DNA from: Bacillota bacterium
GTDB taxonomy: Bacteria > Bacillota_I > Bacilli_A > RF39 > UBA660
Assembly (NCBI GenBank): GCA_015059405.1
Contig: SVAL01000005.1
Location: 34,016-98,015, forward strand
DNA length: 64,000 bases
Direction: 5' to 3'
Shown here: in pieces, positions 8,140-40,549 of the stretch
Layout of the letters: each line of letters opens with the position of its first letter
How positions within the stretch are numbered: the stretch's first letter is position 1
Notes under the pieces: model-generated
What the model was told of the DNA's origin: nothing
The model's input: only the letters and a program-made list of their open reading frames with translations
Database searches by the model: none
Translations under genes and position numbers: made by a program

Positions 8140-8167
8140 TTGACAAAAGACCGGGGGGGGGTATGAT
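8140..8167 (+). promoter_or_regulatory. Sigma-A-like promoter TTGACA-N16-TATGAT. The spacer contains a G9 homopolymer (8153-8161).
   Basis: TTGACA at 8140-8145 and TATGAT at 8162-8167. The 16-nt spacer is aaagacc followed by nine Gs. It lies 29 nt upstream of the pilin-like gene's ATG at 8196, which has RBS agaggagtg. Confidence 0.5.
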
Positions 8168-8195
8168 TTTAGTAGATAATAGAGGAGTGTGTCAA

Positions 8196-10307
8196 ATGAA
8201 GAATAAAAAAGGTTTTACATTAATAGAATTATTAGCTGTAATAGTAATACTAGGACTTTTAATGGCAATTGCGATTCCAAGTGTAACAAAGTATATAACA
8301 GAATCAAGAAAGAAAACAGTAGTTAGTACAATAGGAAACTATATAACAGCAATGGTAAATGAGGTAAATGATTTAACATATACATTTACTGAAGCTAATA
8401 TAATTTATGCAGTACCGATAGAATGTATAGCACTTGAAAGAGGAGGAACAAATCCATTAGGGAAATGGATGCAAGCAAATAATAGTTATTGGGCATATGT
8501 ACTTGTACAATATGATGATGAAACATCTAGTTACAGATATGGTTTTACTTTCAAAGATAGTGCAGGATATGGACTATATCCAACAGCACAATCAAAACTA
8601 AATGAACAAGGTAAACAAATTCAAACGGGTTTAGAATTAACTAGACCTAAAAATGGAAAAGTAACTACTATAACAGCAGTAGATAAATGGAATGGATTTG
8701 ATGTGGATAGTGCAACAAATTTAGTAGTATTAGAATCTACATTAGAAGGTGAAGTAGGGGATGGTAAAAAAACTTGTACTTTGTGCCAAAAAGGAGATAA
8801 CTATAACCAAGTGGAAGAAGAGAAATTAGATAATATTGATACGCCTCTTCATTTCGGTATACCTTATGAAAATATTGAAAATGGAATTAGTGAAGCTTAT
8901 ATTTTTCATGAGGATGGTTCTGCAGATTATTATTATGATTGCGAGTTAAGTTATTCAGGAACGGCGGGTGATTATAGATATTACGAAGGTTATATTGAGG
9001 ATACTCTATTTTATGATATTGTCTTTCAAATTTCAGAGGATAAAAAAAGTATTACAGACTTTTGGGATTTTGATTTTGTTTATACACTTAATCGAAGTTC
9101 GACTTGGTGTGAAACTGAAAACTCAACACTTAGAAGTGCCAAAAACTCAGTGGCTTTTTGGCAGTATAAAGACAAAATTAAAACAATTACATTTCAAGAT
9201 AGCATAAATATTCCAAATGGTATTGATGACAAGTACAAATGGGATGTATCAAAAACACAAAGCGGTACAGTAATGGCGTATATTACACCAAATTCTAGTA
9301 ATTCAGATTTTTATGATTTATATATTCAAGGTGACGGAAAAATATATGCCCCGTCAAATAGTTCAAATTTATTTAAAGATTTTAAATATTTAGATAGTAT
9401 TAATAATATAGAAGTGTTGGATACAAGTAAAGTTATTACAATGTCTTATATGTTTTATAATGCCGGATATAATAGTACTGCATTTACATTAGACTTAGGA
9501 AATAATTTTGATACAAGCAAAGTTACTAATATGTCTTATATGTTTTATAATACCGGATATAATAGTACTGCATTTACATTAGACTTAGGAAATAATTTTG
9601 ATACAAGCAAAGTTACTAATATGTCTGCTATGTTTTATTGTGCAGGTCGTAGCAGCACTGCATTTACATTAGAATTAGGAAATAATTTTGATACAAGCAA
9701 AGTTACTGATATGTCTTCTATGTTTTATTGTACAGGTCGTAGCAGCACTGCGTTTGTATTGAATTTAGGAGATAAATTTGATACAAGCAATGTAACTACT
9801 ATGTATCAAATGTTCAGCGATACAGGATATAATAGTACCATATTTACATTAAACTTAGGAAATAAATTTGATACAAGTAATGTAACAACTATGTATAAAA
9901 TGTTTCATCAGGTAGGTACTAAAAATCCAAATTTCACATTGGATTTGGGAGATAAATTTGATACAAGTAATGTAAAGAATATGTATGGGATGTTTCATAG
10001 TGTTGGAAGTGCTAGTACTAAATTTACATTAGATTTAGGTGATAAGTTTGATACTAGCAAAGTTACTAATATGGGATTTATGTTTATGCAAACAGGGAAT
10101 AAAAATCCAAATTTCACATTGAATTTAGGAAATAAATTTAATACAAGTAATGTAACGGAGATGAGGCAGATGTTTTATCTGACGGGAAGAAATAGTTTAT
10201 TATTTAGCCTTGATTGTAGTACTTGGAATGTTGAGAAAGTAACTAGTTATAGTAATTTCAATTATGGTGTAGAAACTAAAGTAACTCCACCAATATGGAA
10301 ACATTAA
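8196..10307 (+). CDS. Modular type IV pilin. It has a class III signal peptide, a conserved pilin domain of about 205 aa, and C-terminal DUF285-type (BspA/Mycoplasma-like) 30-aa tandem repeats.
   Basis: MKNKKG|FTLIELLAVIVILGLLMAIAIP prepilin motif (Phe+1, Glu+5). The conserved Cys pair is C(IECIAL) and C(KTCTLC). About 9 repeats of LGNNFDTSKVTNMSYMFYNTGYNSTAFTLD follow. I prefer the start at 8196 over 8163. Confidence 0.8.
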   Translation: MKNKKGFTLIELLAVIVILGLLMAIAIPSVTKYITESRKKTVVSTIGNYITAMVNEVNDLTYTFTEANIIYAVPIECIALERGGTNPLGKWMQANNSYWAYVLVQYDDETSSYRYGFTFKDSAGYGLYPTAQSKLNEQGKQIQTGLELTRPKNGKVTTITAVDKWNGFDVDSATNLVVLESTLEGEVGDGKKTCTLCQKGDNYNQVEEEKLDNIDTPLHFGIPYENIENGISEAYIFHEDGSADYYYDCELSYSGTAGDYRYYEGYIEDTLFYDIVFQISEDKKSITDFWDFDFVYTLNRSSTWCETENSTLRSAKNSVAFWQYKDKIKTITFQDSINIPNGIDDKYKWDVSKTQSGTVMAYITPNSSNSDFYDLYIQGDGKIYAPSNSSNLFKDFKYLDSINNIEVLDTSKVITMSYMFYNAGYNSTAFTLDLGNNFDTSKVTNMSYMFYNTGYNSTAFTLDLGNNFDTSKVTNMSAMFYCAGRSSTAFTLELGNNFDTSKVTDMSSMFYCTGRSSTAFVLNLGDKFDTSNVTTMYQMFSDTGYNSTIFTLNLGNKFDTSNVTTMYKMFHQVGTKNPNFTLDLGDKFDTSNVKNMYGMFHSVGSASTKFTLDLGDKFDTSKVTNMGFMFMQTGNKNPNFTLNLGNKFNTSNVTEMRQMFYLTGRNSLLFSLDCSTWNVEKVTSYSNFNYGVETKVTPPIWKH
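9400..10210. repeat. About 9 copies of a 90-nt tandem repeat within the pilin-like gene. Three copies are near-identical at nucleotide level.
   Basis: The unit gacttaggaaataattttgatacaagcaaagttactaatatgtct... recurs with period 90 (9481, 9571, 9661 ...). Confidence 0.8.
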
Positions 10308-10308
10308 A

Positions 10309-10332
10309 ATATTTTAAGGAGACTTTAAGTCT
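10309..10332 (+). terminator. Rho-independent terminator.
   Basis: ggagactt-taa-agtctc followed by T6. Confidence 0.6.
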
Positions 10333-10382
10333 CTTTTTTGTATTTGTGTTTGTGATATGTTATAATTTTTTTGAGGTAGAGT

Positions 10383-11273
10383 ATGAAGAAAAAGATTATT
10401 ACATTTAGTGTTATTTTTATTATATTAATTATAATTGTTTTATCTTTTGTAGTGTCTTTTATTAATGATAGAAAGATTAAGGAAAGAAGAGAGGAAATAA
10501 AGCAATTTGTCATTAATTGTTTAGAAGATAAATATAATGAAAAGTTTGAGATAAAAGAATACTTAGTAGAAGGTGTTCCAGTAGATATTACAACTTTAAC
10601 GGATGAAGTAATAGAAAAATCTAATTTTCATAAGTTTATAGTTTCATCTTCAAGATTGGTAGAATTTGATGTTGTATATATTGAATATTTAGATAATGAT
10701 ATTTATTTGAAAAATAAAGAATCAGATATATTAGAACCTGGTATATACGATAATTATATTTATAATTATAAAATGCGTGATATTAGAAGTGAGATAAGAG
10801 AAGAAGTTAATACTATACTTGGAAATGTTAAAAATATAGATGTATCTTTTACTGATATAGGGAATTATTATATAGAGAATTTGTTGATTAAACAAAGTCT
10901 TGATAGTAAAGAAGAGTTAGAGTTATATAATAAATATTTTAATTTAAATAAAGATATATCAAATAAAGATTTTTATGATAAAACAATGGAAATTAGTAAT
11001 GGAGAATTAATTCTTGATATAGAAGTAAATGATTATATTGTAAATAGTAATCTTTCTAATTTTAAAAAGAAAGTAAAAAAACTTGTTAAATATATTCAAG
11101 GATTAGGATATAAGGAATATAATATTAATCTTACTTTTAATAAATATCAAAGTGCTAATATTGTTAAATATTTAGAAGAAGAAAAAGAACAAATATATTT
11201 AATATTTGATTATGATATTTATTCAAATGAAGATGCTAGTAATAAATTAGGAGCATATATAATTGATAAGTAA
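10383..11273 (+). CDS. Hypothetical protein with one N-terminal TM helix.
   Basis: 296-aa ORF. RBS gaggtagagt upstream. No recognisable domain. Confidence 0.5.
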   Translation: MKKKIITFSVIFIILIIIVLSFVVSFINDRKIKERREEIKQFVINCLEDKYNEKFEIKEYLVEGVPVDITTLTDEVIEKSNFHKFIVSSSRLVEFDVVYIEYLDNDIYLKNKESDILEPGIYDNYIYNYKMRDIRSEIREEVNTILGNVKNIDVSFTDIGNYYIENLLIKQSLDSKEELELYNKYFNLNKDISNKDFYDKTMEISNGELILDIEVNDYIVNSNLSNFKKKVKKLVKYIQGLGYKEYNINLTFNKYQSANIVKYLEEEKEQIYLIFDYDIYSNEDASNKLGAYIIDK

Positions 11274-11302
11274 AAGAAAAGACTACACGTTTGTGTAGTC
11301 TT

Positions 11303-12073
11303 TTAAAGTACATATAAAAGTATTGTGAAGAATTGGAAGATGCTTCCTCCTAATACAAAGAAGTGCCAAATAGAATGTAGATATTTAATTTTATCATCAC
11401 CAATTGCATAGATTACAGCACCTACTGTATAAACGATTCCTCCTACTAGTAGTAAAATAAATCCTGGAGTAGGTAATTTTTCCCATATATCTTTTATTGA
11501 AAAAATTATCATCCATCCCATAAGTAAGTATAATACAAATGATGGTTTATCATATTTTTCTAAATCAATACTATTAAATACAATACCTAGGATAGCTAAA
11601 GCCCACATTATGGTCATCATAATGATTCCTTTAGTACCACCAATAGTTATAAGTAAGAATGGAGTATAACTACCTGCGATAAGTAAGAATATGCTACAGT
11701 GGTCAAATACTCTAAATACTTTTTTAGCTCTATTCCTTGCTAGGGCATGGTATAAGCAACTCATTAAGTAAAGAATAATTAAACTCATTCCATATATGCA
11801 GCTTGATACTACAGCAAGTGCACTTCCTCCTTTAGCAGCACTTATAATACAAAGTATTAGAGCAACGATTGAAAGTAATGCTCCAACTCCATGTGATATA
11901 GAGCTAATTAATTCTTCCCCCAAAGTGTATTTTGGTAAAGTAATTTTTTCTTTTTTAATATTTTTAATAGCTTCTTTTGTTTCTTCAATAATATTTATTT
12001 TTTCTTCTTGTTTATCTATTTTTTTAATTTTATTATTATTTTTCTTTTTCGATGTTTTTTTCTTTTTGCTCAT
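11303..12073 (-). CDS. Hemolysin III / PAQR family channel protein with a Lys-rich N-terminal extension.
   Basis: Seven predicted TM helices. Motifs ISHGVGALLSIVALILCI and SIWHFFVLGGSIFQFF are typical of HlyIII/YqfA. Confidence 0.65.
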   Translation of the reverse strand: MSKKKKTSKKKNNNKIKKIDKQEEKINIIEETKEAIKNIKKEKITLPKYTLGEELISSISHGVGALLSIVALILCIISAAKGGSALAVVSSCIYGMSLIILYLMSCLYHALARNRAKKVFRVFDHCSIFLLIAGSYTPFLLITIGGTKGIIMMTIMWALAILGIVFNSIDLEKYDKPSFVLYLLMGWMIIFSIKDIWEKLPTPGFILLLVGGIVYTVGAVIYAIGDDKIKYLHSIWHFFVLGGSIFQFFTILLYVL

Positions 12074-12161
12074 AAAATCACCTAAGTAATATTATACAAT
12101 AAAATTGGTAAAAAAAGATACTTAATGTTATAATTTAAATATGTGAAAGTGTGGGAAGATT

Positions 12162-12827
12162 ATGCCTAAAAAAGATAGATTAGATATAATATATGAAGAT
12201 AAAGATATAATAGTAGTAAATAAGCCAAGTAAGTTATTAACTATATCAACAGATAATGAAAAAGAAAAGACTTTGTTTCATAAAGTTATTACATATGAAA
12301 AAAAGAAAAATAAAAATAATAAAATATTTATAGTTCATAGATTAGATAAAGATACTAGTGGGATTGTTTTATTTGCGAAAAGTGAAGAATTAAAAAGAAA
12401 GTTTCAAGATAATTGGGATAGTTTAGTTAAAATAAGAGAATATGTTGCGATAGTAGAGGGAGTTCCTCCTAAAGAAAAGGGGACTGTTAGAAGTTGGTTA
12501 AAAGAAACTAAGACTTTACTTGTTTATTCTTCTAATCGTATGGGAGATGGAAAAGAAGCTATTACGCATTATAGAAAAGTAATGGGAAATAAACAATTTA
12601 CTATGTTAGATATTTTAATTGATACCGGAAGAAAAAATCAAATAAGAGTACACATGAGTGATATAGGATGTCCAATAATTGGAGATAAAAAATATAATAG
12701 TAAATATAATACAATTAGAAGAATGGGATTACATGCAAATAAGTTAGTAATTACTCATCCAATAACTGGAAAGGAAATGACTTTTGAATGTGATATTCCT
12801 AATAATTTTATAAAGATAGTAGAATAG
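12162..12827 (+). CDS. RluA-family pseudouridine synthase.
   Basis: Catalytic motif HRLDKDTSGIVLFAK. KPSKLLT in the N-terminal part. 221 aa. Confidence 0.8.
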   Translation: MPKKDRLDIIYEDKDIIVVNKPSKLLTISTDNEKEKTLFHKVITYEKKKNKNNKIFIVHRLDKDTSGIVLFAKSEELKRKFQDNWDSLVKIREYVAIVEGVPPKEKGTVRSWLKETKTLLVYSSNRMGDGKEAITHYRKVMGNKQFTMLDILIDTGRKNQIRVHMSDIGCPIIGDKKYNSKYNTIRRMGLHANKLVITHPITGKEMTFECDIPNNFIKIVE

Positions 12828-12900
12828 GTTCATCTATTCTTTTTTCTTGTGTTTTTTAGTTTTTTGTGGTAAAATATACGCAATTAATGGGGTGTTTGGT

Positions 12901-14787
12901 ATGATAGGTGTTTTTGATTTAGAAGTTTTATTAAAGAGTTATGGAATCGATTATGAGAAAGTTCTTGAAAATAATGAGAAGATTTTGTCATTAGGAGAAT
13001 ATTCTGATATTAAGAAAGTACTTAATTATTTAATTTTAGAACTTGGTCTTCCTACTAAGAATATAGAAAAGTGTCCTAGTGTTTTATATTTTAATGTTAA
13101 TGCTGTACGTACTAATTATGAGTTTTTAAGTAGTACTGGTATTACTATGGATAATGTTAATAATTGTTTACATATTCTTAGTACTGATCCTAACGATTTA
13201 AGAGATTGTTATGAATATATTTTAAATAATTACGGATTTGAAATTTTAAATAAACAAACATCTATTTTAAAGTGGCCTCTTAGTAAGATTAAGAGATATG
13301 AAGAATTATTTGGAAGTTTTTTTGATAAAAAAGTTTTAATGTCAGCGATATTTTATCAAAATGATGAAGATGAAGTTTATAAGATTATTAATACTTGTCT
13401 TAAATATAATTTAGATTTTGAAGGTAATATGTTTAAAAGCACTGCTTCTGATATAGAGAAGATTGTTGTGATATGTCAGAAATATAATATTTTACCTAGT
13501 GGTAGTATTTTTAGAAAGACACCTTTAGAATTAGAAAAAATAATAGAAATATGTAATCGCGAAAAAATTAAAGTAACAGGTAGTGTTTTTCATAGAAATG
13601 CTGATGAGTTAGAAGATTTATTAATTGTTTGTAAAAAATATAAGATTAAACCAGAAGGATCTGTATTTTGTAAAAAGGCAAATGAATTAGAAGATATTGT
13701 TTTACTTTGTAAGAAACATGGTATTAAAGCAAAGGGTACTATACTTAATAAAAGTATTTCAGATATAGAAACTATAATAGATTTATGTAATAAGTATAAT
13801 GTTAAAATAAGTAGTTCTGTTTTTCAAATGAATGCTTTAGAAGTAGAAGATTTATTTATTACTTGTAAGAAATATGGTATTAAATTAGTTGGTACAGTTT
13901 TTAATCGTAATGCTAGTGAGATTGAAGGAATTGTTTCTTTGTGTAAGAAACATAATATAAAATTATCTGGAACTGTATTTAAACAAAGTGATAAGGAATT
14001 AGAAAGAGTAATAGATGTATGTTTAAAAAATAATATTAAGTTAGAAGGTATTGTTTTTGCTAAAAGTAGTTTTGAAATAGAAAGAATAGTAGATATTTGT
14101 AAAAAATACAATATAGAATTAAAGAAAAATGTCTTTTTAAGTAATTCTAAAGATTTAGAAAAAGTAATTAAAATATGTTTAAAACATAATATTAAACCAG
14201 AGGGGAATGTTTTTAGAAGAAAACCTAAAGAGTTAGAAAGAATCATTCTTCTTTGTAAGAAATATAATATTACTCCAAAAGGAACTGTTTTTAGTAAAAG
14301 TGCTGATGAGATAAAGAAAATTATAGATATATGTTTAAAATATGGTATTAAATTAGAAGGTGCTGTATTTAGAAAAAGTGCTAAAGAAGTAGAAAAGATA
14401 GTTAAAGTTTGTGAGAAGTACAATATTAGTTTAAATGGGGGAATATTTTATCGAAGTGCTGATGAAATTGAAAAGAGTAGTGAATACTTAATTAATAATT
14501 ATGGTACTTGTTATGTTAAAAATTTAATTGTATGTAAACCATTTGAACGAATAAAGGAAGTTTTTCCATACTTAGATAGTTTAGGTGTTTTACCAGTTGT
14601 TGTTAAAAGCCCTGGAATACTTGAAATAAAATTAGATGAAATTAAAGAAAGAGAAACAGTTATTAAAAATTTAAATATGCCAATAGTAGATAATCGTGGT
14701 ATGTTTAATACTTTGTTTTCTTTAAGTAGAAATAGATATTATAAAAGAATTGAAAAATTAGGATATCAAAAAGTATTAAGTAAATAG
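12901..14787 (+). CDS. Tandem-repeat protein. About 15 copies of a 26-aa repeat are flanked by mTERF-like helical motifs. Function unknown.
   Basis: The repeat is xGxVFxKxAxELExIVxLCKKYNIKx with period 78 nt, spanning 13420-14460. The N- and C-terminal regions contain Pro-anchored helical motifs resembling mTERF. The mTERF assignment is inferred. Confidence 0.55.
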   Translation: MIGVFDLEVLLKSYGIDYEKVLENNEKILSLGEYSDIKKVLNYLILELGLPTKNIEKCPSVLYFNVNAVRTNYEFLSSTGITMDNVNNCLHILSTDPNDLRDCYEYILNNYGFEILNKQTSILKWPLSKIKRYEELFGSFFDKKVLMSAIFYQNDEDEVYKIINTCLKYNLDFEGNMFKSTASDIEKIVVICQKYNILPSGSIFRKTPLELEKIIEICNREKIKVTGSVFHRNADELEDLLIVCKKYKIKPEGSVFCKKANELEDIVLLCKKHGIKAKGTILNKSISDIETIIDLCNKYNVKISSSVFQMNALEVEDLFITCKKYGIKLVGTVFNRNASEIEGIVSLCKKHNIKLSGTVFKQSDKELERVIDVCLKNNIKLEGIVFAKSSFEIERIVDICKKYNIELKKNVFLSNSKDLEKVIKICLKHNIKPEGNVFRRKPKELERIILLCKKYNITPKGTVFSKSADEIKKIIDICLKYGIKLEGAVFRKSAKEVEKIVKVCEKYNISLNGGIFYRSADEIEKSSEYLINNYGTCYVKNLIVCKPFERIKEVFPYLDSLGVLPVVVKSPGILEIKLDEIKERETVIKNLNMPIVDNRGMFNTLFSLSRNRYYKRIEKLGYQKVLSK

Positions 14788-14863
14788 ATGTTGTAAAGTA
14801 ATTGTTCCTTAATTTACTATTTAATATTATACATGTTATAATTAAATAGTATGAGGTGATAGA

Positions 14864-15514
14864 ATGAGAGTAAGTGATTATTCTTTTAGAGAACTTGATA
14901 AAAGATGGGTAGGAATAGAAGGTAAGAAGTATTGTAAGAAGATAGGTAAAAAGTTAAGGATAAAGAACTTAGCTCGTCCTGTTTTTGGATATTTTTATAT
15001 AGATAAGGAATTTGGTCTATCACTTAGAATTGTTGGTAATATAGAAAAAGATGGACGTAATAAACTTTATTTAGATGAAGAATTTCTTTTTGATAGTGAT
15101 TTGGTTTTGGATTATGATTTTGTTTCAAAATTTGAAATTGAATTATTAAATGAAGAAGTAGTTGAAGTTATTGAAGGTAGTTATGTTTTAGAAAATAAGT
15201 TAGATATTCATTATAAAAATGTTAATAATTTCTTAGATACTAGAAACTTAGAAGAATTAGATCCTTTTAGGAGTACTCAATTTCCTGATGATGTTCAAGT
15301 CTTACTTGTTAATAAGGGAGAAAATCCAGATGAGTTGTTATGGGCTAGAATTGAAGGGATTATGGATGTTAAACCTGATGTTTTAATTTGTAAGTTACTT
15401 GGTGCGTCTTACTATAATGAAGATTATGTTGAGGATGCGATGGTAGGAGTTAAATATTTTAAAGATGAAGAATCTTTAAAAATAGTAGGAATGTTAAGAA
15501 GAAGAGAGAAGTAG
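14864..15514 (+). CDS. Hypothetical protein.
   Basis: 216-aa ORF with RBS gaggtgat upstream. No recognisable domain. Confidence 0.5.
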   Translation: MRVSDYSFRELDKRWVGIEGKKYCKKIGKKLRIKNLARPVFGYFYIDKEFGLSLRIVGNIEKDGRNKLYLDEEFLFDSDLVLDYDFVSKFEIELLNEEVVEVIEGSYVLENKLDIHYKNVNNFLDTRNLEELDPFRSTQFPDDVQVLLVNKGENPDELLWARIEGIMDVKPDVLICKLLGASYYNEDYVEDAMVGVKYFKDEESLKIVGMLRRREK

Positions 15515-15603
15515 TTTTCTCTTTTTTTATGTAATTTGCTTTTTTATTTTAGGTATGCTAAAATTAATTTGCTTGGTTGAATATAAACGAGGTGAATTTA
15601 TAA

Positions 15604-16248
15604 GTGAAAATTAGTAGGATAAAAATCCTTTGTATAATGTTTTTATTGCTATTTGTTATGCTTATAACTGCTGTATTTGGTGATGGTATTAAGTTATATA
15701 TGACTAACAGTGTTAGTAATGTTAATGATGAAGTAATAGAAGAAGATATTAATATTAGTGATGTAGGTAGTAGTATTAGTGGAAAAGCTGATAAGGCAGA
15801 TATTAGTAATATTGCAGTAAAGATTGAAAGAGAAGAAGTTTATGCTGGTTTAACGATTGAAGAATTAACTTTAAAGTTAAATCGTTATTTAAAAGATAAA
15901 GGGGCTTTAGCTAATCAAGGTAGTTTGATAGCGACACAAAGTTTGGCAATGGGTGTTGATCCTTATGTTGCAGTTGCGATTATGATGCATGAAACTGGAT
16001 GTAATAATGAATGTAGTAGACTTGTTAAAAATAAAAATAATGTTGGTGGAATGCGTGGACGTAGTGGTAGATGGCAATCTTTTGCTACTTTAGAAGATGG
16101 AATAAATGGTTTTTTAAGTAATTTATCTAGAAATTATTATAAAAAAGGTTTAAATACTCCAGAAAAAATGGCTAAAAAGTATGCTGGTGGTTCAACTTCT
16201 TGGGCTGGAAAAATAAGAAATTATATGGCTGTAATAGAAAGAGTTTAG
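15604..16248 (+). CDS. Membrane-anchored glucosaminidase-domain (FlgJ-like N-acetylglucosaminidase) peptidoglycan hydrolase.
   Basis: GTG start with RBS gaggtg. N-terminal TM helix. Motif AVAIMMHETGCNNECSRLVKNKNNVGGM matches the glucosaminidase catalytic region. Confidence 0.6.
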   Translation: MKISRIKILCIMFLLLFVMLITAVFGDGIKLYMTNSVSNVNDEVIEEDINISDVGSSISGKADKADISNIAVKIEREEVYAGLTIEELTLKLNRYLKDKGALANQGSLIATQSLAMGVDPYVAVAIMMHETGCNNECSRLVKNKNNVGGMRGRSGRWQSFATLEDGINGFLSNLSRNYYKKGLNTPEKMAKKYAGGSTSWAGKIRNYMAVIERV

Positions 16249-16255
16249 TTACTTA

Positions 16256-16710: not shown

Positions 16711-16731
16711 TTTTAAAGAGAAGAGGTAATA

Positions 16732-19250: not shown

Positions 19251-19252
19251 TA

Positions 19253-23424: not shown

Positions 23425-23517
23425 GGCATCTTTTTTATATGATAAAGTTGTCTTTATTTTATTGATTAAGATATTCGTTAATGTTAAAATAGATTTATAT
23501 AGTAGAGGAGTGAATTT

Positions 23518-24492
23518 ATGAAGAATAAAAAAGGTTTTACACTTATTGAATTACTTGCGGTAATAGTAATACTAGGACTATTAATGGCAATAGCAATACC
23601 AAGTGTAACAAAGTATATTACACAATCAAGAAAGAAAACAGTAGTATCAACTATTGGTAATTACATATCAGCTGCAGTAAACGAAGTAAATGATTTAACA
23701 TACACATTTACTGGAAATAATACAGTTTATGCAGTGCCAATTGAATGTATTGCTCTAGAAAGAGGTGGGACAAATCCGTTTGGACACTGGTTACATGCAA
23801 ATGATGCATACTGGGCATATGTGCTTGTACAATATGACGATGAAACATCATCATATACATATGGATATACATTCAAAGATAGTGCAGGATATGGACTATA
23901 TCCGACTTCTCAAGCAAAATTAAATGAACAAGGAAAACAAATACAAACAGGTCTTTCTTTAACAAGACCAGCAAATGGAAAAGTTACAACAATAACATCA
24001 ACAACTAACTGGAGTGGATTTAGTGTAGATTCATCAACTGATTTAGTAGTACTTGCGGCAATGAAAGAAGGAGAAGTTGGAAATGGTAAAACTACATGTA
24101 CACTTCTACAAAAAGATGATAATTATGCTTCTATAGAACAAGATAGAATTAATGATCCAAACTATGGCGGAAACATAGGTGGAGGAAGTAATAATAATAA
24201 CGATGGTTCTAGTGGTAGTGATGATGATAATGTAGTTGTTACACCATTATTAACATTTAAAATTGATGGAAAAAGTTATAGTTATGAAGATGGCATGACT
24301 TTAACACAATGGATAAATAGTAGTTATAATACTGATAATTTTATTGTAGAAGATGACACTGTTTATACTTCTGACAAATCAAAAAAAATATCAGGTAAAA
24401 ATGGTTCTAGTAAGATTGAAAAAGATGGTAGTTATACTTTAACTAATGTATATACTGGTGGTGGCGTTTCTCATGTTGGTGGAAGTAACTAA
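23518..24492 (+). CDS. Modular type IV pilin, paralog 2. Conserved pilin domain, a Gly/Asn/Ser-rich linker and a short beta-rich C-terminal domain.
   Basis: Same prepilin motif. About 85% identical to the 8196 gene over roughly 205 aa. It diverges after GDNY (GGNIGGGSNNNNDGSSGSDDDN...). Confidence 0.8.
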   Translation: MKNKKGFTLIELLAVIVILGLLMAIAIPSVTKYITQSRKKTVVSTIGNYISAAVNEVNDLTYTFTGNNTVYAVPIECIALERGGTNPFGHWLHANDAYWAYVLVQYDDETSSYTYGYTFKDSAGYGLYPTSQAKLNEQGKQIQTGLSLTRPANGKVTTITSTTNWSGFSVDSSTDLVVLAAMKEGEVGNGKTTCTLLQKDDNYASIEQDRINDPNYGGNIGGGSNNNNDGSSGSDDDNVVVTPLLTFKIDGKSYSYEDGMTLTQWINSSYNTDNFIVEDDTVYTSDKSKKISGKNGSSKIEKDGSYTLTNVYTGGGVSHVGGSN

Positions 24493-33155: not shown

Positions 33156-33217
33156 AATATAGACTAATAAAATTTATTGATATCTATATTTTTCATAATA
33201 TACTATGGGAGGTATTT

Positions 33218-33505
33218 ATGAAGAGTATAGATATTTTTAATTTAATGAATATATCTAATCCTAGAATTGTTGATATTAGAGATAATTATAAGTATAGTTT
33301 AGGTACCATTCCCGGTTCTATTAATGTTCCATATCTTTTTTTGGTTACTAATCCTAGTAATTATTTAAATAAGAATGAAATTTATTATTTATTATGTGAT
33401 AGTGGTAATACTAGTCTTAGATGTTGTTTAGAACTTATGGGAATAGGGTATAATGTTATTAATATAGATGGTGGATATAATAGTTATTTAAAATATAAAA
33501 AATAA
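33218..33505 (+). CDS. Single-domain rhodanese-like sulfurtransferase.
   Basis: 95 aa, with IVDIRDNYKYSLGTIPGSINVP and an active-site CDSG. Confidence 0.65.
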   Translation: MKSIDIFNLMNISNPRIVDIRDNYKYSLGTIPGSINVPYLFLVTNPSNYLNKNEIYYLLCDSGNTSLRCCLELMGIGYNVINIDGGYNSYLKYKK

Positions 33506-33535
33506 AAAGTATAAAAAAATAAAGGCTTAATGCCT

Positions 33536-34042
33536 TTATTTTATGTATCCATTTTGAACTAGTTTTGTTTCTGTTATGATAATAAATGCTTGTTTATCTA
33601 ATTTTTTAATTATATTTTTTACATCACCAATATTTTTATTATTTACTTCTATTAGTAACATATATTTTTTAGCATCATTATATCCTTTAGCGTCAATAAC
33701 TGTTACTCCATAACCACTACCACTAATAACGTCAATTATTTTTTTGTTTTTAGTAATTACTTGTAGAGAAGAATTTCCACTTATAAACTTTTGAGATAAT
33801 TTACCACCTAGAAAAGTTCCAGTAGCAAAACCACCAGCGTATGCTATTGCTACAAAGATACTATTAGAGTCAGTATTAAGGGCTTCTTTAACAACTAAGA
33901 ACCATATTAATACTTCAATAAAACCAATCATACTAGCTTGAATTGGTTTTGCTTTAACAGTAAGAATAGTTCTAAAAGTTCCCATAGTTACATCTGTAAT
34001 TCTTACAAAGAATACTTTTATACATAAAAATAATAATTCCAT
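33536..34042 (-). CDS. UPF0316/DUF2179 family membrane protein (YebE-like).
   Basis: TM segments, then GYGVTVIDAKGY...LIEVNNKN, which parallels B. subtilis YebE GFGVTVFEGEG. Confidence 0.65.
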   Translation of the reverse strand: MELLFLCIKVFFVRITDVTMGTFRTILTVKAKPIQASMIGFIEVLIWFLVVKEALNTDSNSIFVAIAYAGGFATGTFLGGKLSQKFISGNSSLQVITKNKKIIDVISGSGYGVTVIDAKGYNDAKKYMLLIEVNNKNIGDVKNIIKKLDKQAFIIITETKLVQNGYIK

Positions 34043-34179
34043 ATATTCACCTTACCTTATCAAATTGAGTATAAGAAAAATAGTAAACTTTGTCAATTAT
34101 TTAAAAATACCAATTTATTATATTTATTATTTATATTATAATTAGAAATGTAAAATATATAATATAAAGAAGGTGAAGT

Positions 34180-34767
34180 ATGGATATTATTATTAATGAT
34201 ATAGTTAATAATTTAGTTAATTATGTTCAGTTATATGGAATATGGTTAGGATTTTTAATAATTATATTAGAATCAATATTACCATTTTTACCTTTATTTG
34301 TTTTTATAGCATTAAATGTAGAAGCATTTGGATTTATAATAGGTTTTTTATTATCTTGGTCAGCAACAATAGTAGGTTGTTTAATATCTTATTTCTTTTT
34401 TAAATATTTAGTAGGAAATAGAATAGATAAATATATTAATAAGAGTAAGAAGAAAAAAGAAAAATTAAGAAAAGTAGTTAATGCAATTAAAAATGTTAAA
34501 TTTTCAACTTTGGTAGTATTAATGGCTTTACCTTTTTCACCTGCATTTATGTTTAATATAGCTTGTGGAATAACTAAAGTAAATTTTAGAAAGTTCTTTT
34601 TATCTTTATTAATATCTAAATTATCTATAATATATTTTTGGGGATTTATAGGTACTAGTTTATTTGATAGTATTATGGATGTTACAATATTAATAAGAGT
34701 TGTTATAATGTTGTTAGTGGCTTTTATGATATCTAAGTTCGTTATGAAAAAATATAATATAGAATAG
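34180..34767 (+). CDS. TVP38/TMEM64 (DedA-like, SNARE-associated) family membrane protein.
   Basis: Hydrophobic pattern and the LESILPFLPLFVFIALNVEAFGFIIGFLLSW motif region. Confidence 0.6.
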   Translation: MDIIINDIVNNLVNYVQLYGIWLGFLIIILESILPFLPLFVFIALNVEAFGFIIGFLLSWSATIVGCLISYFFFKYLVGNRIDKYINKSKKKKEKLRKVVNAIKNVKFSTLVVLMALPFSPAFMFNIACGITKVNFRKFFLSLLISKLSIIYFWGFIGTSLFDSIMDVTILIRVVIMLLVAFMISKFVMKKYNIE

Positions 34768-34777
34768 GAGTAATTTT

Positions 34778-35863
34778 ATGGAAATAGCAATTATCGTTTT
34801 ATTAAGTATATTAGTTTTATTAGTACTTATATTAATTATATTAGTGCTTAAAAACAAAAAAGATGAAACTAGAATAGTAGAAAAGTTAGGTAGATTTGAA
34901 TTCAATATAACTAAAGAGATTAATTATTTTAAGAATGATTTTGATAAAGAAATAAATGGTAATTTTGATAAGATGAATGAAAAGATTGAAAGAAAATTAA
35001 ATCTTATTAATGATAGAGTTAATGAAAGACTTGATCAAAATTTTGAAAAGACTAATAAGACTTTCTCTAATATATTAGAAAGATTATCTAAAATAGATGA
35101 AGCTCAAAAGAAGATTGAGACTTTATCAGGAGATATAGTATCTTTACAAAGTGTATTAACTGATAAGAAGAGTAGAGGTATATTTGGAGAAGTAAATCTT
35201 AAACATATTTTAAGTAATGTGTTTGGAGAAAAAAATGATAAGATTTATAGACTTCAACATACTTTATCTAATGGTACAATAGCAGATTCGATTTTATTTG
35301 CACCTGAACCTTTAGGAACAATTGCGATTGATTCTAAATTTCCACTTGAAAACTATCAAATGATGGTAGATAAGAAGAATTCTTTAGAAGTTAGAGAAAA
35401 GTGTGAAAAGTTATTTAAAGCAGATATGAAGAAACATATAGATGCGATTAGTAGTAAATACATTATTCCAGATGAAACTAGTGATCAAGCAATTATGTTT
35501 TTACCAGCAGAAGCAATTTTTGCGGAAGTTAATGCATATCATCAAGACGTTATTGATTATGCATATAAGAAACATGTATGGGTAACATCACCAACTACTT
35601 TAATTTCGACTTTAACTGTTGTTCAAATGATTATTAAGAATATGGAAAGAGATAAGTACACATCTATTATTCATAATGAATTAAATAAATTAGGACAAGA
35701 ATTCTCTAGATATAAAGAAAGATGGGATCATTTGGCTAAGAGTATTCAAAGTGTTAATAAAGATGTAGAAAATGTACATATTACTACTGAAAAGATAACT
35801 AAAAGATTTAATGAAATTAGTGGAGTAGAAGTAGATAAATTAGAGTTAGAAGATAAAGATTAG
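34778..35863 (+). CDS. rmuC: DNA recombination protein RmuC.
   Basis: N-terminal TM, long coiled coil, then the RmuC nuclease-like core (SRGIFGEVNLKHIL...FLPAEAIFAE). Confidence 0.75.
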   Translation: MEIAIIVLLSILVLLVLILIILVLKNKKDETRIVEKLGRFEFNITKEINYFKNDFDKEINGNFDKMNEKIERKLNLINDRVNERLDQNFEKTNKTFSNILERLSKIDEAQKKIETLSGDIVSLQSVLTDKKSRGIFGEVNLKHILSNVFGEKNDKIYRLQHTLSNGTIADSILFAPEPLGTIAIDSKFPLENYQMMVDKKNSLEVREKCEKLFKADMKKHIDAISSKYIIPDETSDQAIMFLPAEAIFAEVNAYHQDVIDYAYKKHVWVTSPTTLISTLTVVQMIIKNMERDKYTSIIHNELNKLGQEFSRYKERWDHLAKSIQSVNKDVENVHITTEKITKRFNEISGVEVDKLELEDKD

Positions 35864-35926
35864 TCTTTATCTTTTTTATTTGAATATAAATATCTTTATT
35901 TTTACATAATATAAAGTAGGTGGTTT

Positions 35927-36151
35927 ATGTTAAAGAGAATAATTTTATTTTTAATTGGATTTATTTTAACAGTAATTGGATTTACTTTTATAATTATTTA
36001 TTTAAATTTAACTACTATGGGATATAGTTTTTTAGAATATTTAAAATATATTTTTCAAAGAATAGAATGTTTATTTGGACTTGTTGGAATTATTTTAATT
36101 ATTATTTCTTTATATGAAAAAGGAGGAAAAAGTCTTGATATATATTTATGA
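35927..36151 (+). CDS. Small two-TM membrane protein.
   Basis: 74-aa hydrophobic ORF with RBS aagtaggtgg. Confidence 0.4.
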   Translation: MLKRIILFLIGFILTVIGFTFIIIYLNLTTMGYSFLEYLKYIFQRIECLFGLVGIILIIISLYEKGGKSLDIYL

Positions 36152-36779
36152 TTTAATATTAAATTGGTGTCGCGATAAAAAGTATGAGTTTTTTGAATGG
36201 AAAGAAAATGATGAAATAGAATATATAAAAAAGATTCCTATTTTTAAAGTTAAAAATTTTGATAGTTTATTTAATAATGATATCAAGGTAAGTAAAGATT
36301 TTTTAAATAGAATTTATAATAAGACAGAAGTATATGGTAATAAAAAAATAGATAAAGTAGAATATGCTTGTGTTTTTTGTGATGAAGAATTGAATAAAAC
36401 TTTTGCGATAGAATTTAATGATGAAGGAGAAAATTTGTTTAAAAGTATAATTTATATTTATGATATAGAAGATGTATTTATTTTAGGCAGAAGAATTGAT
36501 TTATTAGATTTGGAGTTTATTATATTAGAAAAGAAAGAAGAAAAAGATATTTATTTAACAAGGGAAGAAATTAAGAAAAAGAAATTATTAGTTAATGAAA
36601 TAAAAAGTTCTTATACTAATAATAATTTAGATAAATTAAAATATTTTTATTATGAAATTTTTGGGATAGAAATAGATGATATAGATATGATTTATGATAA
36701 GTTGATTGATAGTTTAAATAATAATTTTAATTATAAGCATAATGTTATATATGATGTTGTTAATATACCTAATTTTTAA
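36114..36779 (+). CDS. Hypothetical protein.
   Basis: The true start may be TTG at 36135, 8 nt after GGAGG at 36122-36126. Terminator ctaatc-ttt-gattag-T7 at 36778-36801. Confidence 0.5.
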   Translation: MKKEEKVLIYIYDLILNWCRDKKYEFFEWKENDEIEYIKKIPIFKVKNFDSLFNNDIKVSKDFLNRIYNKTEVYGNKKIDKVEYACVFCDEELNKTFAIEFNDEGENLFKSIIYIYDIEDVFILGRRIDLLDLEFIILEKKEEKDIYLTREEIKKKKLLVNEIKSSYTNNNLDKLKYFYYEIFGIEIDDIDMIYDKLIDSLNNNFNYKHNVIYDVVNIPNF

Positions 36780-36795
36780 CTAATCTTTGATTAGT

Positions 36796-36872
36796 TTTTT
36801 TGTGGTATAAAGTAAAATCTTGATATATGCGAATACGAATGATAAAATTATATCTAGAATAGGAATGGTGTT
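36796..36872 (+). promoter_or_regulatory. Conserved promoter and leader of pilin-like paralog 3 (TTGATA-N17-TAAAAT). It is duplicated almost exactly at 39192-39268.
   Basis: A 77-nt block is identical to the block upstream of the next paralog except for 3 mismatches. ttgata-tatgcgaatacgaatga-taaaat. Confidence 0.5.
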
Positions 36873-39134
36873 ATGAAGGAAAATAAAGGTTTTACATTAA
36901 TAGAATTACTGGCTGTAATAGTAATACTTGGTTTACTTATGGCAATAGCAATACCAAGTGTTACAAAATATATTACTGAATCTAGAAAAAAGACTTTAAC
37001 TACAACGGTAGGTAATTATATAAGTGCACTTGTTAATGAAGTTAACGATCTTTCTTATATATTTACTGATGCTAATACAATTTACGCAGTACCAATAGAG
37101 TGTATATCACTTGAAAGGGGTGGAACAGATCCTTTTGGATATTGGTATCAAGCAAATGATGCATATTTTGCATATGTACTTGTACAATATGATGATGTTA
37201 ATTCTAAGTACATTTATGGATTTACATTTAAAGATAGTGCTGGTTATGGATTGTATCCAACTATACAAGGAAATATAGATGAAAATGGTAAGCAAGTTAA
37301 AACAGGATATGATTTAAATAGACCAAAGACAGGGGAACTTACTTCTTTAACTGGTTTAGCTAAATGGCAAGAGTCAGGGTTTAAAGTAGATTCTTCGACT
37401 TATTTACAAGTTTTAGAAGCAACTAGTGAAGGCACTATAGGAGATGGAATATCAACCTGTACTTTATGTCAAAAAGGTGATAATTATGCTAAAGTAGAAG
37501 AAGACAAAATTACATGTAACTCGAATAAAGATCCTAGTTGTGATAGTACTCCTGGGATTTTAACAGGGAATGGTAAGCAAAACGACCCTTATTTGATAGA
37601 ATCTATGGAAGATTTAGTAGCTTTTGCTAATATTATTAATAATAAAAAATACGAGACTGGTTTTTATACTCCTATTATTTTTGAAGGTAGAAAAGTTTGG
37701 TGTAATTTTTATGTGGAATTAGCTAAAAACTTGGATTTTAAAGATCCGTCTTCATATGTTAATTCTAATACAAAAGAATTTGGGGATGTTAATAATAATG
37801 GAATTGTTGAACCTTTGATTGTAGAATTGAATTCAGGGGATGGATTCCCAACAATTAATTCAAATAACGATAATGAATTGAGGTTAGTCTTTGATGGAAA
37901 AAATCATTATTTAAAGAATTATAATTATAATATTGTTAATACTGATGCATCTAAGGTTGTTAACTTATCGTTATTTGGTGAGTTTGATGGAAGTTTTTAT
38001 AGTACTAATATAGCTAATTTAGCTTTGAAAGATGTTAACTTTTTTGTAGATACTGCAGGAGATGCTTATATAAGCCCTGTTATTAAAGAGATTAAGTCTT
38101 ATTATACATATCAATTATCTAATATAAGTGTTACAGGAAAAATTCAAGCTAAGTGTGGAGGGGCTTGTAATGTAGGAGGAATGGCTTATTCAATATTTAC
38201 TTATGGTAATGGTGCTGATGATGCTGTAAATAAAATAAATGTAAATTTAGATATAGATGTTTCTGGTAATAATGTTGTTGTTGGTGGTATTGCTAGTAGG
38301 TCTTCTAATTTAGGATATTATATTTTAGATTCTAATTTTACTGGTGATATTAATGTAAAAGCAACTAATGAGGCTTATGTTGGTGGTATTAATGCTACTT
38401 CTATTTATTTTAAATCAGTAAATTCATCTGTTAGTTCTGATATTCATGTGGAAACTAAATCGGGTGAAGTTTATGGGATTGGTAAAGGTACTATTTATAA
38501 TAGTTTTTATAAGGGTGATATGTATGTAAAATCATATACGCCTCTTAATATGGCTGGTTTAGGTAGAGATAATGTATATAATTCGTATGCAATTGGGGAT
38601 ATAATTGTTGATGCTGAATATAGATATAATTTTCCAAAAATAGGAGGTTTAACATCTTCTGGTCAAGTATTTGATTCATATTATATTGGAAATGTTTCTT
38701 ATAATACTAATACAAGTTATGGTGGTGGGGGACCGACTGTTTTATTAGGTTTATTAAGTGGTGGAAATTCTACTTTTAATTCTTTTTCAAGAGGAAAGAT
38801 TACTAATACTCAACAAACAACGTATAGAACTTTTTTTGGAATTTTAAGTCCTCATGATACGGATAGAGCAGCACCTGAAATTGTTAATAGTTATTATGGA
38901 GAAGATAGCTCATATACTGGAAATGCTCCTTGTTATTATGGTGGAGAGAAAGTAACAATTAATAATTTGAAAAATTCTAATTGGTATATAAACAGTTTGA
39001 AACTAGATAATAATTGGGTGTTAAAAGATGGTTATTATCCATTGATTAATAGATGTAATTTTGATTCTAGTACTTCTACTTGTGTTGCTACTACTGAACT
39101 TTTACCTAAACAAGATTGGGTTAAGGTGAATTGA
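36873..39134 (+). CDS. Modular type IV pilin, paralog 3, with a C-terminal GLUG-motif domain.
   Basis: Same prepilin and pilin domain. After GDNY comes ...GNGKQNDPYLIESMEDLVAFANI, then repeated VGGI/GGIAS GLUG-like motifs. Confidence 0.8.
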   Translation: MKENKGFTLIELLAVIVILGLLMAIAIPSVTKYITESRKKTLTTTVGNYISALVNEVNDLSYIFTDANTIYAVPIECISLERGGTDPFGYWYQANDAYFAYVLVQYDDVNSKYIYGFTFKDSAGYGLYPTIQGNIDENGKQVKTGYDLNRPKTGELTSLTGLAKWQESGFKVDSSTYLQVLEATSEGTIGDGISTCTLCQKGDNYAKVEEDKITCNSNKDPSCDSTPGILTGNGKQNDPYLIESMEDLVAFANIINNKKYETGFYTPIIFEGRKVWCNFYVELAKNLDFKDPSSYVNSNTKEFGDVNNNGIVEPLIVELNSGDGFPTINSNNDNELRLVFDGKNHYLKNYNYNIVNTDASKVVNLSLFGEFDGSFYSTNIANLALKDVNFFVDTAGDAYISPVIKEIKSYYTYQLSNISVTGKIQAKCGGACNVGGMAYSIFTYGNGADDAVNKINVNLDIDVSGNNVVVGGIASRSSNLGYYILDSNFTGDINVKATNEAYVGGINATSIYFKSVNSSVSSDIHVETKSGEVYGIGKGTIYNSFYKGDMYVKSYTPLNMAGLGRDNVYNSYAIGDIIVDAEYRYNFPKIGGLTSSGQVFDSYYIGNVSYNTNTSYGGGGPTVLLGLLSGGNSTFNSFSRGKITNTQQTTYRTFFGILSPHDTDRAAPEIVNSYYGEDSSYTGNAPCYYGGEKVTINNLKNSNWYINSLKLDNNWVLKDGYYPLINRCNFDSSTSTCVATTELLPKQDWVKVN

Positions 39135-39191
39135 GTTGTTAAAAAAAGAATTGTTTATCAGTTCTTTTTTTATTTGGGTATAAATAATTGT

Positions 39192-39268
39192 TTTTTTGTG
39201 GTACAAAGTAAAATCTTGATATATGTGAATACGAATGATAAAATTATATCTAGAATAGGAATGGTATT
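39192..39268 (+). promoter_or_regulatory. Second copy of the conserved promoter and leader, for paralog 4.
   Basis: See 36796-36872. Confidence 0.5.
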
Positions 39269-40549
39269 ATGAAGAAAAATAAAGGTTTTACATTAATAGA
39301 ATTACTAGCTGTAATAGTAATACTTGGTTTACTTATGGCAATAGCAATACCAAGTGTTACAAAATATATTACTGAATCTAGAAAAAAGACTGTTACATCA
39401 ACAATAGGTAATTATATAACAGCCATGGTAAATGAAGTAAATGATTTAACTTATACATTTACTGATGCGAATACTATTTATGCAGTACCAATTGAGTGTA
39501 TTGCGTTAGAACGAGGTGGTACTAATCCATTTGGTGCATGGTATCAAGCCAATGATAGTTACTGGGCATATGTTTTAGTTCAATATGATGATGAAACTTC
39601 ATCATATAGATATGGATATACCTTTAAGGATAGTGCTGGATATGGATTATATCCAACAGCGCAGTCTAAGTTAAATGAAAGTGGAAAACAAATCCAAACT
39701 GGACTTAATTTAAAGAGACCAGAAACTGGTAAAGTAACAACTATAACAGCAGTAGATAACTGGAATGGATTTGGAGTAAATAGTTCTACTGATTTAGTAG
39801 TATTAGTTGCTGAAAGTGAAGGAAATATTGGAGATGGAATAAATACATGTACATTACACCAAAAAGGAGATAATTATTCACAGGTAGAAGAAAATGTTCT
39901 TCCTCCTAAAAATGAACCAGACGAACCAACTCCTCCTATAGAAGAAATACCTGATGATATTCCAGAAGAAACTCCTCCTCAAGATGATTCTACTATTATT
40001 TTATCTAGTTGTACTGGAACTGGTACAAAAGTTGGCAATATGATATCTTGTGGTAATGAAAAATTTTATATAATTGAAAGTAACGAAGAAACAATTACTA
40101 TGTTATCTAGGTATATGATTACTAAAGATTTAAATAATCCTGTGCAAACGACTACTTTTAGTACAATTAAATTTGCTAATTCTAATTATTGGAGTTATAA
40201 TGTATCGAAGTATCCTGCATATGTTTATAATGAAAAATCAAATTTATATCCTTATGTTGAAGCATATGAAAATTATTTAAAAATTAATTTTAATCTGAAT
40301 ACTGCTTCTGCTAGTTTAATTAGTTATGAGCAACTAGTTGCTTTAGGTTGTAAAAAAACAGGTTTTACTTGTAATGGCTCTTCTTATAGTAGTTGGTTAA
40401 GACCTATTTCTGGATATTATTGGACTGGAAGTGCTGACACTAAATCTACCTTGTTTTATGTAAATGAGGGTGGAGGATTTTTGAGCCATAGTACAGCAAG
40501 TGGTATAAGACCGATAGTGACAGTTAATAAAGAACAAATAAAATTTTAA
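39269..40549 (+). CDS. Modular type IV pilin, paralog 4, with a Pro/Glu-rich linker and an uncharacterised C-terminal domain.
   Basis: Same prepilin and pilin domain. Linker PPKNEPDEPTPPIEEIPDDIPEETPPQDD, then a globular domain of about 190 aa with 4 Cys. Confidence 0.8.
   Translation: MKKNKGFTLIELLAVIVILGLLMAIAIPSVTKYITESRKKTVTSTIGNYITAMVNEVNDLTYTFTDANTIYAVPIECIALERGGTNPFGAWYQANDSYWAYVLVQYDDETSSYRYGYTFKDSAGYGLYPTAQSKLNESGKQIQTGLNLKRPETGKVTTITAVDNWNGFGVNSSTDLVVLVAESEGNIGDGINTCTLHQKGDNYSQVEENVLPPKNEPDEPTPPIEEIPDDIPEETPPQDDSTIILSSCTGTGTKVGNMISCGNEKFYIIESNEETITMLSRYMITKDLNNPVQTTTFSTIKFANSNYWSYNVSKYPAYVYNEKSNLYPYVEAYENYLKINFNLNTASASLISYEQLVALGCKKTGFTCNGSSYSSWLRPISGYYWTGSADTKSTLFYVNEGGGFLSHSTASGIRPIVTVNKEQIKF

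Follow-up and report, generated by a model that had tools for sequence, protein, structure and literature searches.

Probable modular type IV-class pilins with a common carrier module and unrelated payloads in a low-GC lineage of gut Bacilli

Four genes in a 64-kb window (the whole stretch of DNA analysed here, taken from contig SVAL01000005.1 of the Bacillota assembly GCA_015059405.1) encode proteins that begin with the same pilin module of about 205 amino acids (aa) and continue into four different C-terminal regions. The evidence supports reading these genes, called A to D in their order along the plus strand, as bona fide modular type IV-class pilins in which a common carrier module is joined to unrelated payloads. 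It is judged highly likely that the proteins are true pilins served by a type IV filament machine, leaving aside which one. The fuller reading, in which a Tad-type machine builds the filament, the payloads are presented at the surface, and some members are tuned by poly-G tracts in their promoters, is held with confidence only somewhat better than even. The host is an uncultured spore-forming lineage of gut Bacilli of ~25% GC. An earlier note, made from the sequence of the window alone, had drawn attention to the four genes; all four open reading frames (ORFs) are present on the plus strand where it had placed them, and a six-frame motif scan of the window finds exactly four copies of the pilin start, those of genes A-D.

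Carrier module and payloads

Each of the four proteins opens with MK(N/E/K)(K/N)KG↓FTLIELLAVIVILGLLMAIAIPSV, where the arrow marks the predicted cleavage point. This is the class III prepilin signal (MKxxKG↓FTLIELLAVIVILGLLMAIAIP) recognized in the earlier note, and comparison with hidden Markov models (HMMs) bears it out, with matches above cutoff in all four genes both to PF07963 (N_methyl; E 5e-9 to 9e-8, with 4.9e-9 in gene A) and to TIGR02532 (E ~1e-7). Alignment likewise confirms a shared domain of ~205 aa with a cysteine pair, spanning to ...TCTL.QK(G/D)DNY. Across 71 family members, G-1, F+1, and E+5 (G6, F7, and E11) are invariant, as are Cys77 and Cys194, which form a probable disulfide in the head. 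For gene A, gene callers put the start at 8163; the class III leader and an AGGAG ribosome-binding site fit 8196.

Whether this domain has a pilin fold is a question to which sequence and predicted structure contribute differently. Sequence likeness to known pilins is limited to residues 1-50, with partial matches to GspG, PpdD, ComGC, and PilA, and a family profile compared with the PDB finds only solved type IV pilins (geopilin, PilA, and PilE1), by way of the N-terminal helix. AlphaFold2 (AF2), given an alignment of 67-71 sequences, predicts a helix at residues 9-58 followed by an antiparallel sheet; the module-only model of gene D has a mean predicted local distance difference test score (pLDDT) of 86.7 and a predicted template modelling score of 0.85, and the best structural match of the head is a minor pilin from Streptococcus sanguinis. 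On this basis we read the module as having a putative pilin architecture with a lineage-specific head.

Beyond residue ~205 the four sequences are unalignable, as expected from the proposal that a different module follows GDNY in each gene. The tandem repeats of gene A (~26-30 aa, of the type FDTS.VT.M..MF) match both DUF285 (PF03382; E 7.1e-55, four stretches) and the PARCEL repeat (TIGR02167; E 3.8e-27, 10 stretches), confirming the DUF285 assignment. The stretch rich in Gly, Asn, and Ser and the small beta domain proposed for gene B are both recovered in its predicted structure, as a disordered linker (aa 214-242, pLDDT <50) and a confidently predicted beta-rich domain (aa 244-310, pLDDT ~82-91). 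Modular architecture is therefore seen in gene A with DUF285 and in gene B with a small domain predicted to fold on its own beyond the disordered linker; the tails of genes C and D are long and without similarity to pilins. The Pro/Glu linker and Cys-containing domain described for gene D are visible in its sequence, and the 190-aa domain itself has neither a family match nor a solved relative (Pfam at E<=10, PDB sequence search). The GLUG domain assigned to gene C was not recovered, as a match to PF07581 is absent even at E<=10 from both the full protein and the isolated tail; only remote homologues of the tail (E ~1e-5), which are its only non-pilin relatives, carry PF07581 (E ~1e-10). The tail may thus be called GLUG-like only in the sense of a remote relationship with no domain match. 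More generally, PDB sequence searches with the tails of A, C, and D gave nothing significant, and the isolated tails gave nothing credible against Pfam at E<=10.

Public databases contain proteins identical to those of gene B (P0028) and gene C (P0241, which NCBI lists under the name 'MAG: type II secretion system protein [Firmicutes bacterium]'); an exact-protein look-up with gene D gave no match.

Between copies, the module is 71-85% identical in protein, somewhat below the 80-90% first estimated, and 72-78% identical in DNA. For all six pairs, Nei-Gojobori estimates place synonymous divergence (dS) at 0.79-1.18 and the ratio of nonsynonymous to synonymous divergence (dN/dS) at 0.10-0.22. 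Because this holds for every pair, the conclusion is supported, in agreement with the earlier note, that the copies are of long standing and that the module reflects strong purifying selection rather than recent duplication. The exception lies in codons 1-45 of C and D, where dS is 0.12 and nucleotide identity 95%, as against dS ~1.2 in the rest of the module. Together with the ~75 nucleotides (nt) of near-identical DNA upstream of the two genes, this indicates either local gene conversion at the 5' end or a retained tandem duplication.

Paralogues, promoters, and the poly-G tract

The set of four described in the earlier note is part of a larger one, as at least eight copies are attributable to the window organism. 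The additional copies, assigned from metagenome samples that hold window-identical proteins, include a tandem pair in L093 (JGI 3300018475, from which the window contig also comes), one in L001/L002, and another that adjoins a tad operon (L182/L187); loci outside the window are given by such L numbers throughout. Apart from the tad-adjacent copy, all are orphan genes surrounded by housekeeping genes. At six other family loci (L001, L090, L092-L095, L007, L008), the neighbours are housekeeping genes and machinery is absent, and no conserved partner gene stands beside the window copies, the adjoining unknown ORFs being mutually unrelated.

In public databases, the module has 2,839 relatives, nearly all from metagenome-assembled genomes (MAGs) named 'Firmicutes/Bacilli bacterium,' where the annotation reads 'prepilin-type N-terminal cleavage/methylation domain-containing protein' or 'type II secretion system protein.' The best 120 of these matches include at least 13 unrelated tail types, among them dockerin and the BspA-type leucine-rich repeat (LRR) LRR_5; the gene B type is the commonest, with 47 of the tails clustered from those 120. 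A search with the head alone (residues 46-206) identifies 226 of 1.84 billion representative clusters, in which the head is always found at residues ~46-206 of proteins ranging from 195 to 1464 aa in length. Other members consist of the module only (206-217 aa) and end just past the second Cys, as classical pilins do. Among GTDB representatives, the best matches to the D module reach 46-52% identity; contig scans with the same module returned mostly unrelated pilins that match the N-terminal helix only, and peptide patterns proved too specific. The window genes themselves are recovered identically in many independent assemblies.

Several metagenome contigs start or end inside family pilin genes (L004/L005 at position 1, L184, and L187 at position 1). 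Short-read assemblies break at the conserved module, and copy numbers in MAGs are therefore probably underestimated. A locus common to two different Bacilli MAG lineages (L094 1938-3410 and L007 8453-9685) has two tandem short pilins followed by an AP_endonuc_2 gene and a transpeptidase of the penicillin-binding protein (PBP) 2 type. The short pilins of L094 are module-only members of the family, and those of both loci may be major subunits.

The upstream regions of the four window genes align, sharing TTGA(C/T)(A/T), a spacer of 16-17 nt, TA(A/T)(A/G)AT, and a ribosome-binding site AGGA(G/A)TG, and the genes look independently transcribed. The gene A site is the best sigma-70-like match on the plus strand between 7900 and 10500 (11/12); given the terminator-like hairpin beyond its 3' end, gene A looks monocistronic. 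Its promoter spacer contains a G9 homopolymer that is the sole run of six or more G or C across the window, against a chance expectation of ~0.01 at the window base composition by our own estimate. The same promoter with poly-G occurs 5' of two other paralogues (L093, G9 at 7781-7789; L092, G8 at 7799-7806; L099, G9 at 284-292). L092 and L093 are near-identical over 17.6 kb and differ at four sites, one of which is the poly-G tract, so that G8 and G9 are found at one orthologous locus in two near-identical assemblies. The spacer measures 16 nt with G9 and 15 nt with G8; a change in tract length would therefore alter promoter geometry. To judge from the DNA, the tracts suggest phase variation through the promoter spacer. 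This feature, overlooked by the earlier note, is the sole direct hint of the 'surface variation' that it had proposed.

In the same pair of contigs, a single-A indel splits the NAPRTase gene into two ORFs in one of the two (L093 9623-11205, L092 9640-11223). This indel may reflect a true frameshift or an error in a homopolymer, and calls for caution with G8/G9.

Assembly machinery and competing explanations

No pilus assembly genes were found within the window, as the earlier note had also reported, either in precomputed Pfam annotation of near-identical contigs or in direct scans. That note expected pilB/pilC/pilD or comG machinery elsewhere in the genome, and took a complete lack of type IV filament machinery as grounds for rejecting its reading. 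That objection falls away, for a linked set was found, of the Tad/CpaF type, on a contig from the window's own sample (L187) and on contigs from three other samples in which window-identical proteins also occur. The lead to it was an HMM built from PilB and PilT of unrelated loci, which gave weak T2SSE matches in two low-GC loci. L101 has a family member of 470 aa, followed after 142 nt by genes for a TadE-like protein (PF07811), a TadE/G-like protein, a TadZ resembling ParA, and an ATPase of the CpaF/TadA kind (PF00437, E 1e-63). Homologues of this ATPase, 75-96% identical, are encoded in many 'Bacilli bacterium' MAGs, and the full gene order at their loci is tadE, tadE/G, tadZ, cpaF, tadB, tadC, and then yebC. 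At least four tandem dockerin-tailed members (Pfam Dockerin_1 on one) occupy L181 (ERZ28436075 NODE_1254, 42-3323), 113 nt upstream of an operon that includes tadB and tadC, and in L182 a 592-aa member with N_methyl and DUF285 lies 124 nt upstream of the operon. The arrangement of L182 recurs in L187 (JGI 3300018475), L189 (from the sample of L088), and L184 (from that of L092), all with GC of 0.25-0.26 and all on contigs that break inside the pilin module. Thus cpaF/tadA, tadB, and tadC, the assembly ATPase and platform genes, adjoin a family pilin in L182, L184, L187, and L189, and a family member stands directly 5' of the tad operon, on the same strand and with gaps of 113-142 nt, in three related lineages.

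Across the related loci outside the window (L074, L101, L176-L189), PF00437 (1e-63), PF00482 (twice), ParA/AAA_31, and PF07811 (5e-10) are all matched. The ATPase scores 312 bits with the TadA family model TIGR03819, under its 373-bit cutoff, compared with 72 for ComGA and 54 for PilB. The TadE-like proteins share the G-1/E+5 layout of the pilins (RKG↓QALIEF). A Flp-like ORF is absent from the tad loci of this lineage, where the pilin slot is held by N_methyl-type proteins of 280-600 aa, for which reason we do not class the system as a canonical Tad pilus. The operon recurs in a more distant Erysipelotrichaceae MAG (L074), where a GFTLVELL pilin of 118 aa is encoded two genes further downstream. 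Another distant uncultured Bacilli MAG (L054) encodes a true Flp-type pilin of 64 aa (1247-1450; MNKVGNKG↓QALVEYVLIIALV…) ~8.5 kb from an N_methyl-type pilin, so both pilin classes exist in the wider clade.

On the fuller reading, each protein would have four parts, namely a class III leader ending in Gly, a near-identical hydrophobic N-terminal helix, a lineage-specific beta-sheet head, and a payload that comes after ...QKGDNY and a flexible linker and differs from gene to gene. A prepilin peptidase, of which none is seen in the ~230 kb of lineage DNA sampled, would remove the leader, and the shared helix and head would admit every paralogue into one filament, although the position of the modular subunits within it is something that we infer. 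The Tad-type machine (TadE-like pseudopilins, TadZ, CpaF/TadA, TadB, and TadC) would be the most likely builder, because its operon lies directly 3' of a family member in three lineages and has no Flp pilin. The payloads would be displayed on the cell surface, where they may serve in adhesion or partner binding. Each gene would be expressed from its own promoter and, in a subset that includes gene A, a change in the length of the G8-G9 tract would shift the spacing between -35 and -10, switching or tuning expression to give a variable repertoire of payloads. A more ambitious version is tentative and rather doubtful as a whole. It would have the CpaF machine of a low-GC gut Bacilli clade exchange its tiny Flp for a large globular N_methyl pilin, which then radiated into a 'one carrier, many payloads' family; the outcome would be a mosaic filament of at least eight paralogues (LRR adhesins, dockerins, GLUG-like and unknown domains) that is reshuffled by poly-G phase variation and 5' gene conversion.

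Several observations weigh against the Tad-based reading. The Tad pilins known so far are small Flp proteins that lack a globular head (PMC12786226). For a CpaF machine to assemble large pilins of the N_methyl type would be out of the ordinary, and the case for it comes only from the adjacency of the genes. Non-pilin genes fill the slot upstream of tadE in one of the related lineages (L176). HMM and motif searches of the ~230 kb found no A24 prepilin peptidase, although under the Tad model of Denise et al. 2019 the peptidase may be encoded at another site. That the Tad contigs and the extra paralogues share one genome with the window is plausible from their common samples, GC of 0.25-0.26, and assembly breaks rather than established from a closed genome. 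Finally, G8 and G9 were read from two assemblies, and an error in assembling the homopolymer could explain the difference.

In a competing explanation, the genes would be genuine modular pilins assembled by another machine elsewhere in the genome, of the ComG or the PilB/PilC (type IVa) kind, with the Tad adjacency incidental or regulatory. Such a machine would suit the leader and helix (KKG↓FTLIELL...), whose N_methyl type is the usual one in ComGC, PilA, and GspG, and would be free of the difficulty that canonical Tad pilins have no globular head; related Erysipelotrichales have both tad and comG loci (PMC12786226), and most paralogues, including all four in the window, are distant from the tad operon. 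It nevertheless seems unlikely. Regular-expression and HMM searches of the ~230 kb from sampled low-GC Bacilli loci found ATPases of the CpaF type only and none of the PilB/ComGA type. Moreover, family members fill the expected pilin slot at the 5' end of the operon in three lineages, at the short distances given above, in operons that have no Flp gene and whose TadE-like products share the G-1/E+5 layout. Somewhat less probable again is the explanation that nothing is polymerized, with the pilin-like N-terminus serving as a signal-anchor, cleaved or not, and the head as a stalk that tethers the payload to the membrane of a monoderm cell. The lack of a peptidase in the sampled DNA, the scattering of orphan genes among housekeeping genes, and payloads typical of cell-surface adhesins (DUF285, BspA-LRR, dockerin) all accord with an anchor. 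A plain anchor, however, has no need of an invariant Gly-1, Phe+1, and Glu+5, nor of a 205-aa head held at dN/dS ~0.1-0.2 among paralogues whose synonymous sites are near saturation. Module-only members, which resemble classical pilins, have nothing to anchor, and linkage to a filament-assembly operon recurs.

The likeness among copies could in principle also reflect recent duplication, ongoing gene conversion, or an artefact of assembly. The near-identical 5' ends of C and D, the poly-G promoter region shared by A and the second L093 gene, and the frequent breaks of metagenome contigs at these genes (L004, L005, L184, L187) all point in this direction, but the explanation is extremely improbable: dS of 0.8-1.2 in the module for every pair, at the DNA identities reported above, effectively refutes it, the genes recur identically in independent assemblies, and conversion is confined to short 5' tracts.

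Genomic setting and relation to known filaments

The coordinates of the genes and associated features are collected in Table 1. The window, with ~25% GC and nearly all of its genes on the plus strand, is an ordinary chromosomal stretch of a spore-forming Firmicute. Sporulation genes encode a STAS-domain protein and a sigma factor (spoIIA-like), spoVAC/AD/AEB, YunB, and YutH, and housekeeping genes encode ScpA/B, NrdD/G, FeoAB, Tex, a class-Ib aminoacyl-tRNA synthetase (PF00579), a PBP-type carboxypeptidase, and RmuC. Mollicutes genetic code 4 was considered on account of the 25% GC and DUF285, and was dropped in view of long uninterrupted ORFs under table 11 and the presence of sporulation and peptidoglycan genes.

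Table 1. Features of the window related to the modular pilin genes, and the tRNA cluster
Feature	Coordinates	Strand	Description
Gene A promoter-like site	8140-8167	+	TTGACA, 16-nt spacer, TATGAT; aligns with the B, C, and D sites
G9 homopolymer	8153-8161	+	In the gene A promoter spacer; candidate phase-variation tract
Gene A	8196-10307	+	703 aa; pilin module at aa 1-205 (nt 8196-8810); a middle region without assignment; DUF285/PARCEL LRR-type repeats at aa ~390-700
Terminator-like hairpin	10316-10336	+	3' of gene A
Gene B promoter-like site	23462-23490	+	TTGATT, 17-nt spacer, TAAAAT, TG upstream
Gene B	23518-24492	+	324 aa; pilin module nt 23518-24132; linker; small beta-rich domain
C/D shared 5' stretches	36798-37007 and 39194-39403		
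Gene C promoter-like site	36820-36848	+	TTGATA, 17-nt spacer, TAAAAT; near-identical to the D site
Gene C	36873-39134	+	753 aa; pilin module nt 36873-37493; 540-aa tail with GG(I/L)-type repeats
Gene D promoter-like site	39216-39244	+	TTGATA, 17-nt spacer, TAAAAT
Gene D	39269-40549	+	426 aa; pilin module nt 39269-39886; Pro/Glu-rich linker; 190-aa Cys-containing globular domain
12-tRNA cluster	59642-60778	+	Val, Thr, Tyr, Gln, Lys, Leu, Ser, Met, Asp, Phe, Arg, Pro

Three further genes of the window deserve mention in their own right. A 646-aa ORF (12847-14787) without a Pfam match consists of ~14 tandem repeats of ~34 aa, with the consensus …KKYNIK(L/P)EG(S/T)VF.K.A.E(L/I)E.I(I/V).(I/L)C…. 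A 1165-aa ORF without a Pfam family (54459-57956), situated between YutD/DUF1292 and a YutH-like spore-coat gene, has exact copies in several metagenome samples. Near the end of the window, a 260-aa LRR_5 (BspA-type) protein that has no pilin N-terminus (62370-63152; L088 17912-18694) is encoded next to an Inhibitor_I42 (chagasin-like) gene.

Modular pilins as such are not the rarity, only recently described in S. sanguinis, that the earlier note took them to be. Raynaud et al. 2021 (PMC8179133) count >1,200 modular pilins in 264 architectures, and Dataset S1 of that paper lists IPR012902 in combination with IPR005046 (DUF285), IPR011493 (GLUG), IPR026906 (BspA LRR), and IPR002105 (dockerin). 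The architectures themselves were thus known beforehand, and existing annotation already marks the genes as prepilin-type. A literature search found no description of a genome in which many dispersed paralogues share one conserved carrier module, of the linkage of such pilins to a Flp-less Tad-type operon, or of homopolymer tracts in their promoters.

Among known systems, the modular pilins of S. sanguinis (PilB with vWA, PilC with a lectin) are close in kind, and it is a minor pilin of that species that best matches the predicted head. There, however, the modular pilins are single-copy minor subunits, each with its own small pilin module, encoded inside a pil locus of the PilB/PilT type, whereas here a single lineage-restricted carrier of ~205 aa is found in at least eight scattered single-gene paralogues with their own promoters, and the linked machinery is of the CpaF/Tad type. 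With Tad/Flp systems (type IVc; Aggregatibacter, Caulobacter, Bifidobacterium breve, Bulleidia extructa), the linked operon shares TadE-like pseudopilins, a ParA-like TadZ, a CpaF/TadA ATPase, and two single-domain T2SSF proteins (TadB and TadC). Canonical Tad pilins, in contrast, are Flp proteins of ~50-70 aa with a G↓xxxxEY motif and no globular domain, while in these loci large N_methyl pilins with a globular head and a payload stand in place of a Flp gene. The N_methyl-type leader and first ~40 residues also recall ComGC and the minor Com pilins of monoderms. ComGC, however, has ~100 aa and a small head, com pilins are encoded within the comG operon, and the NCBIfam Com models match residues 1-50 only, far under their cutoffs.

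Phase variation through homopolymers or short repeats in promoter spacers is familiar from the poly-A of Mycoplasma hyorhinis vlp, the poly-C/G of Neisseria opc and porA, and the TA repeats of Haemophilus hif. Like those surface genes, the pilin genes have a tract (G8/G9) placed between -35 and -10 that, as far as the assembled sequences tell, would differ in length between near-identical strains. The differences are that the tract is confined to a subset of paralogues, that it occurs in an uncultured Firmicute that forms spores, and that the genes it would regulate are pilins.

Modular pilins are thought to account for many of the functions of simple type IV filaments, and have so far been known as single minor subunits inside pil loci. 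If the reading advanced here is true, a carrier module with at least eight independently transcribed payloads would be a natural surface-display platform, some of whose promoters are slippery, and a tractable model of variation in filament composition in a gut commensal. The dockerin-tailed relatives hint, speculatively, at cohesin-dockerin, pilus-cellulosome-like interactions in bacteria of the herbivore gut. The apparent pairing of globular N_methyl pilins with a Flp-less Tad/CpaF motor would bear, moreover, on how strictly classes of pilin and classes of machine are coupled.

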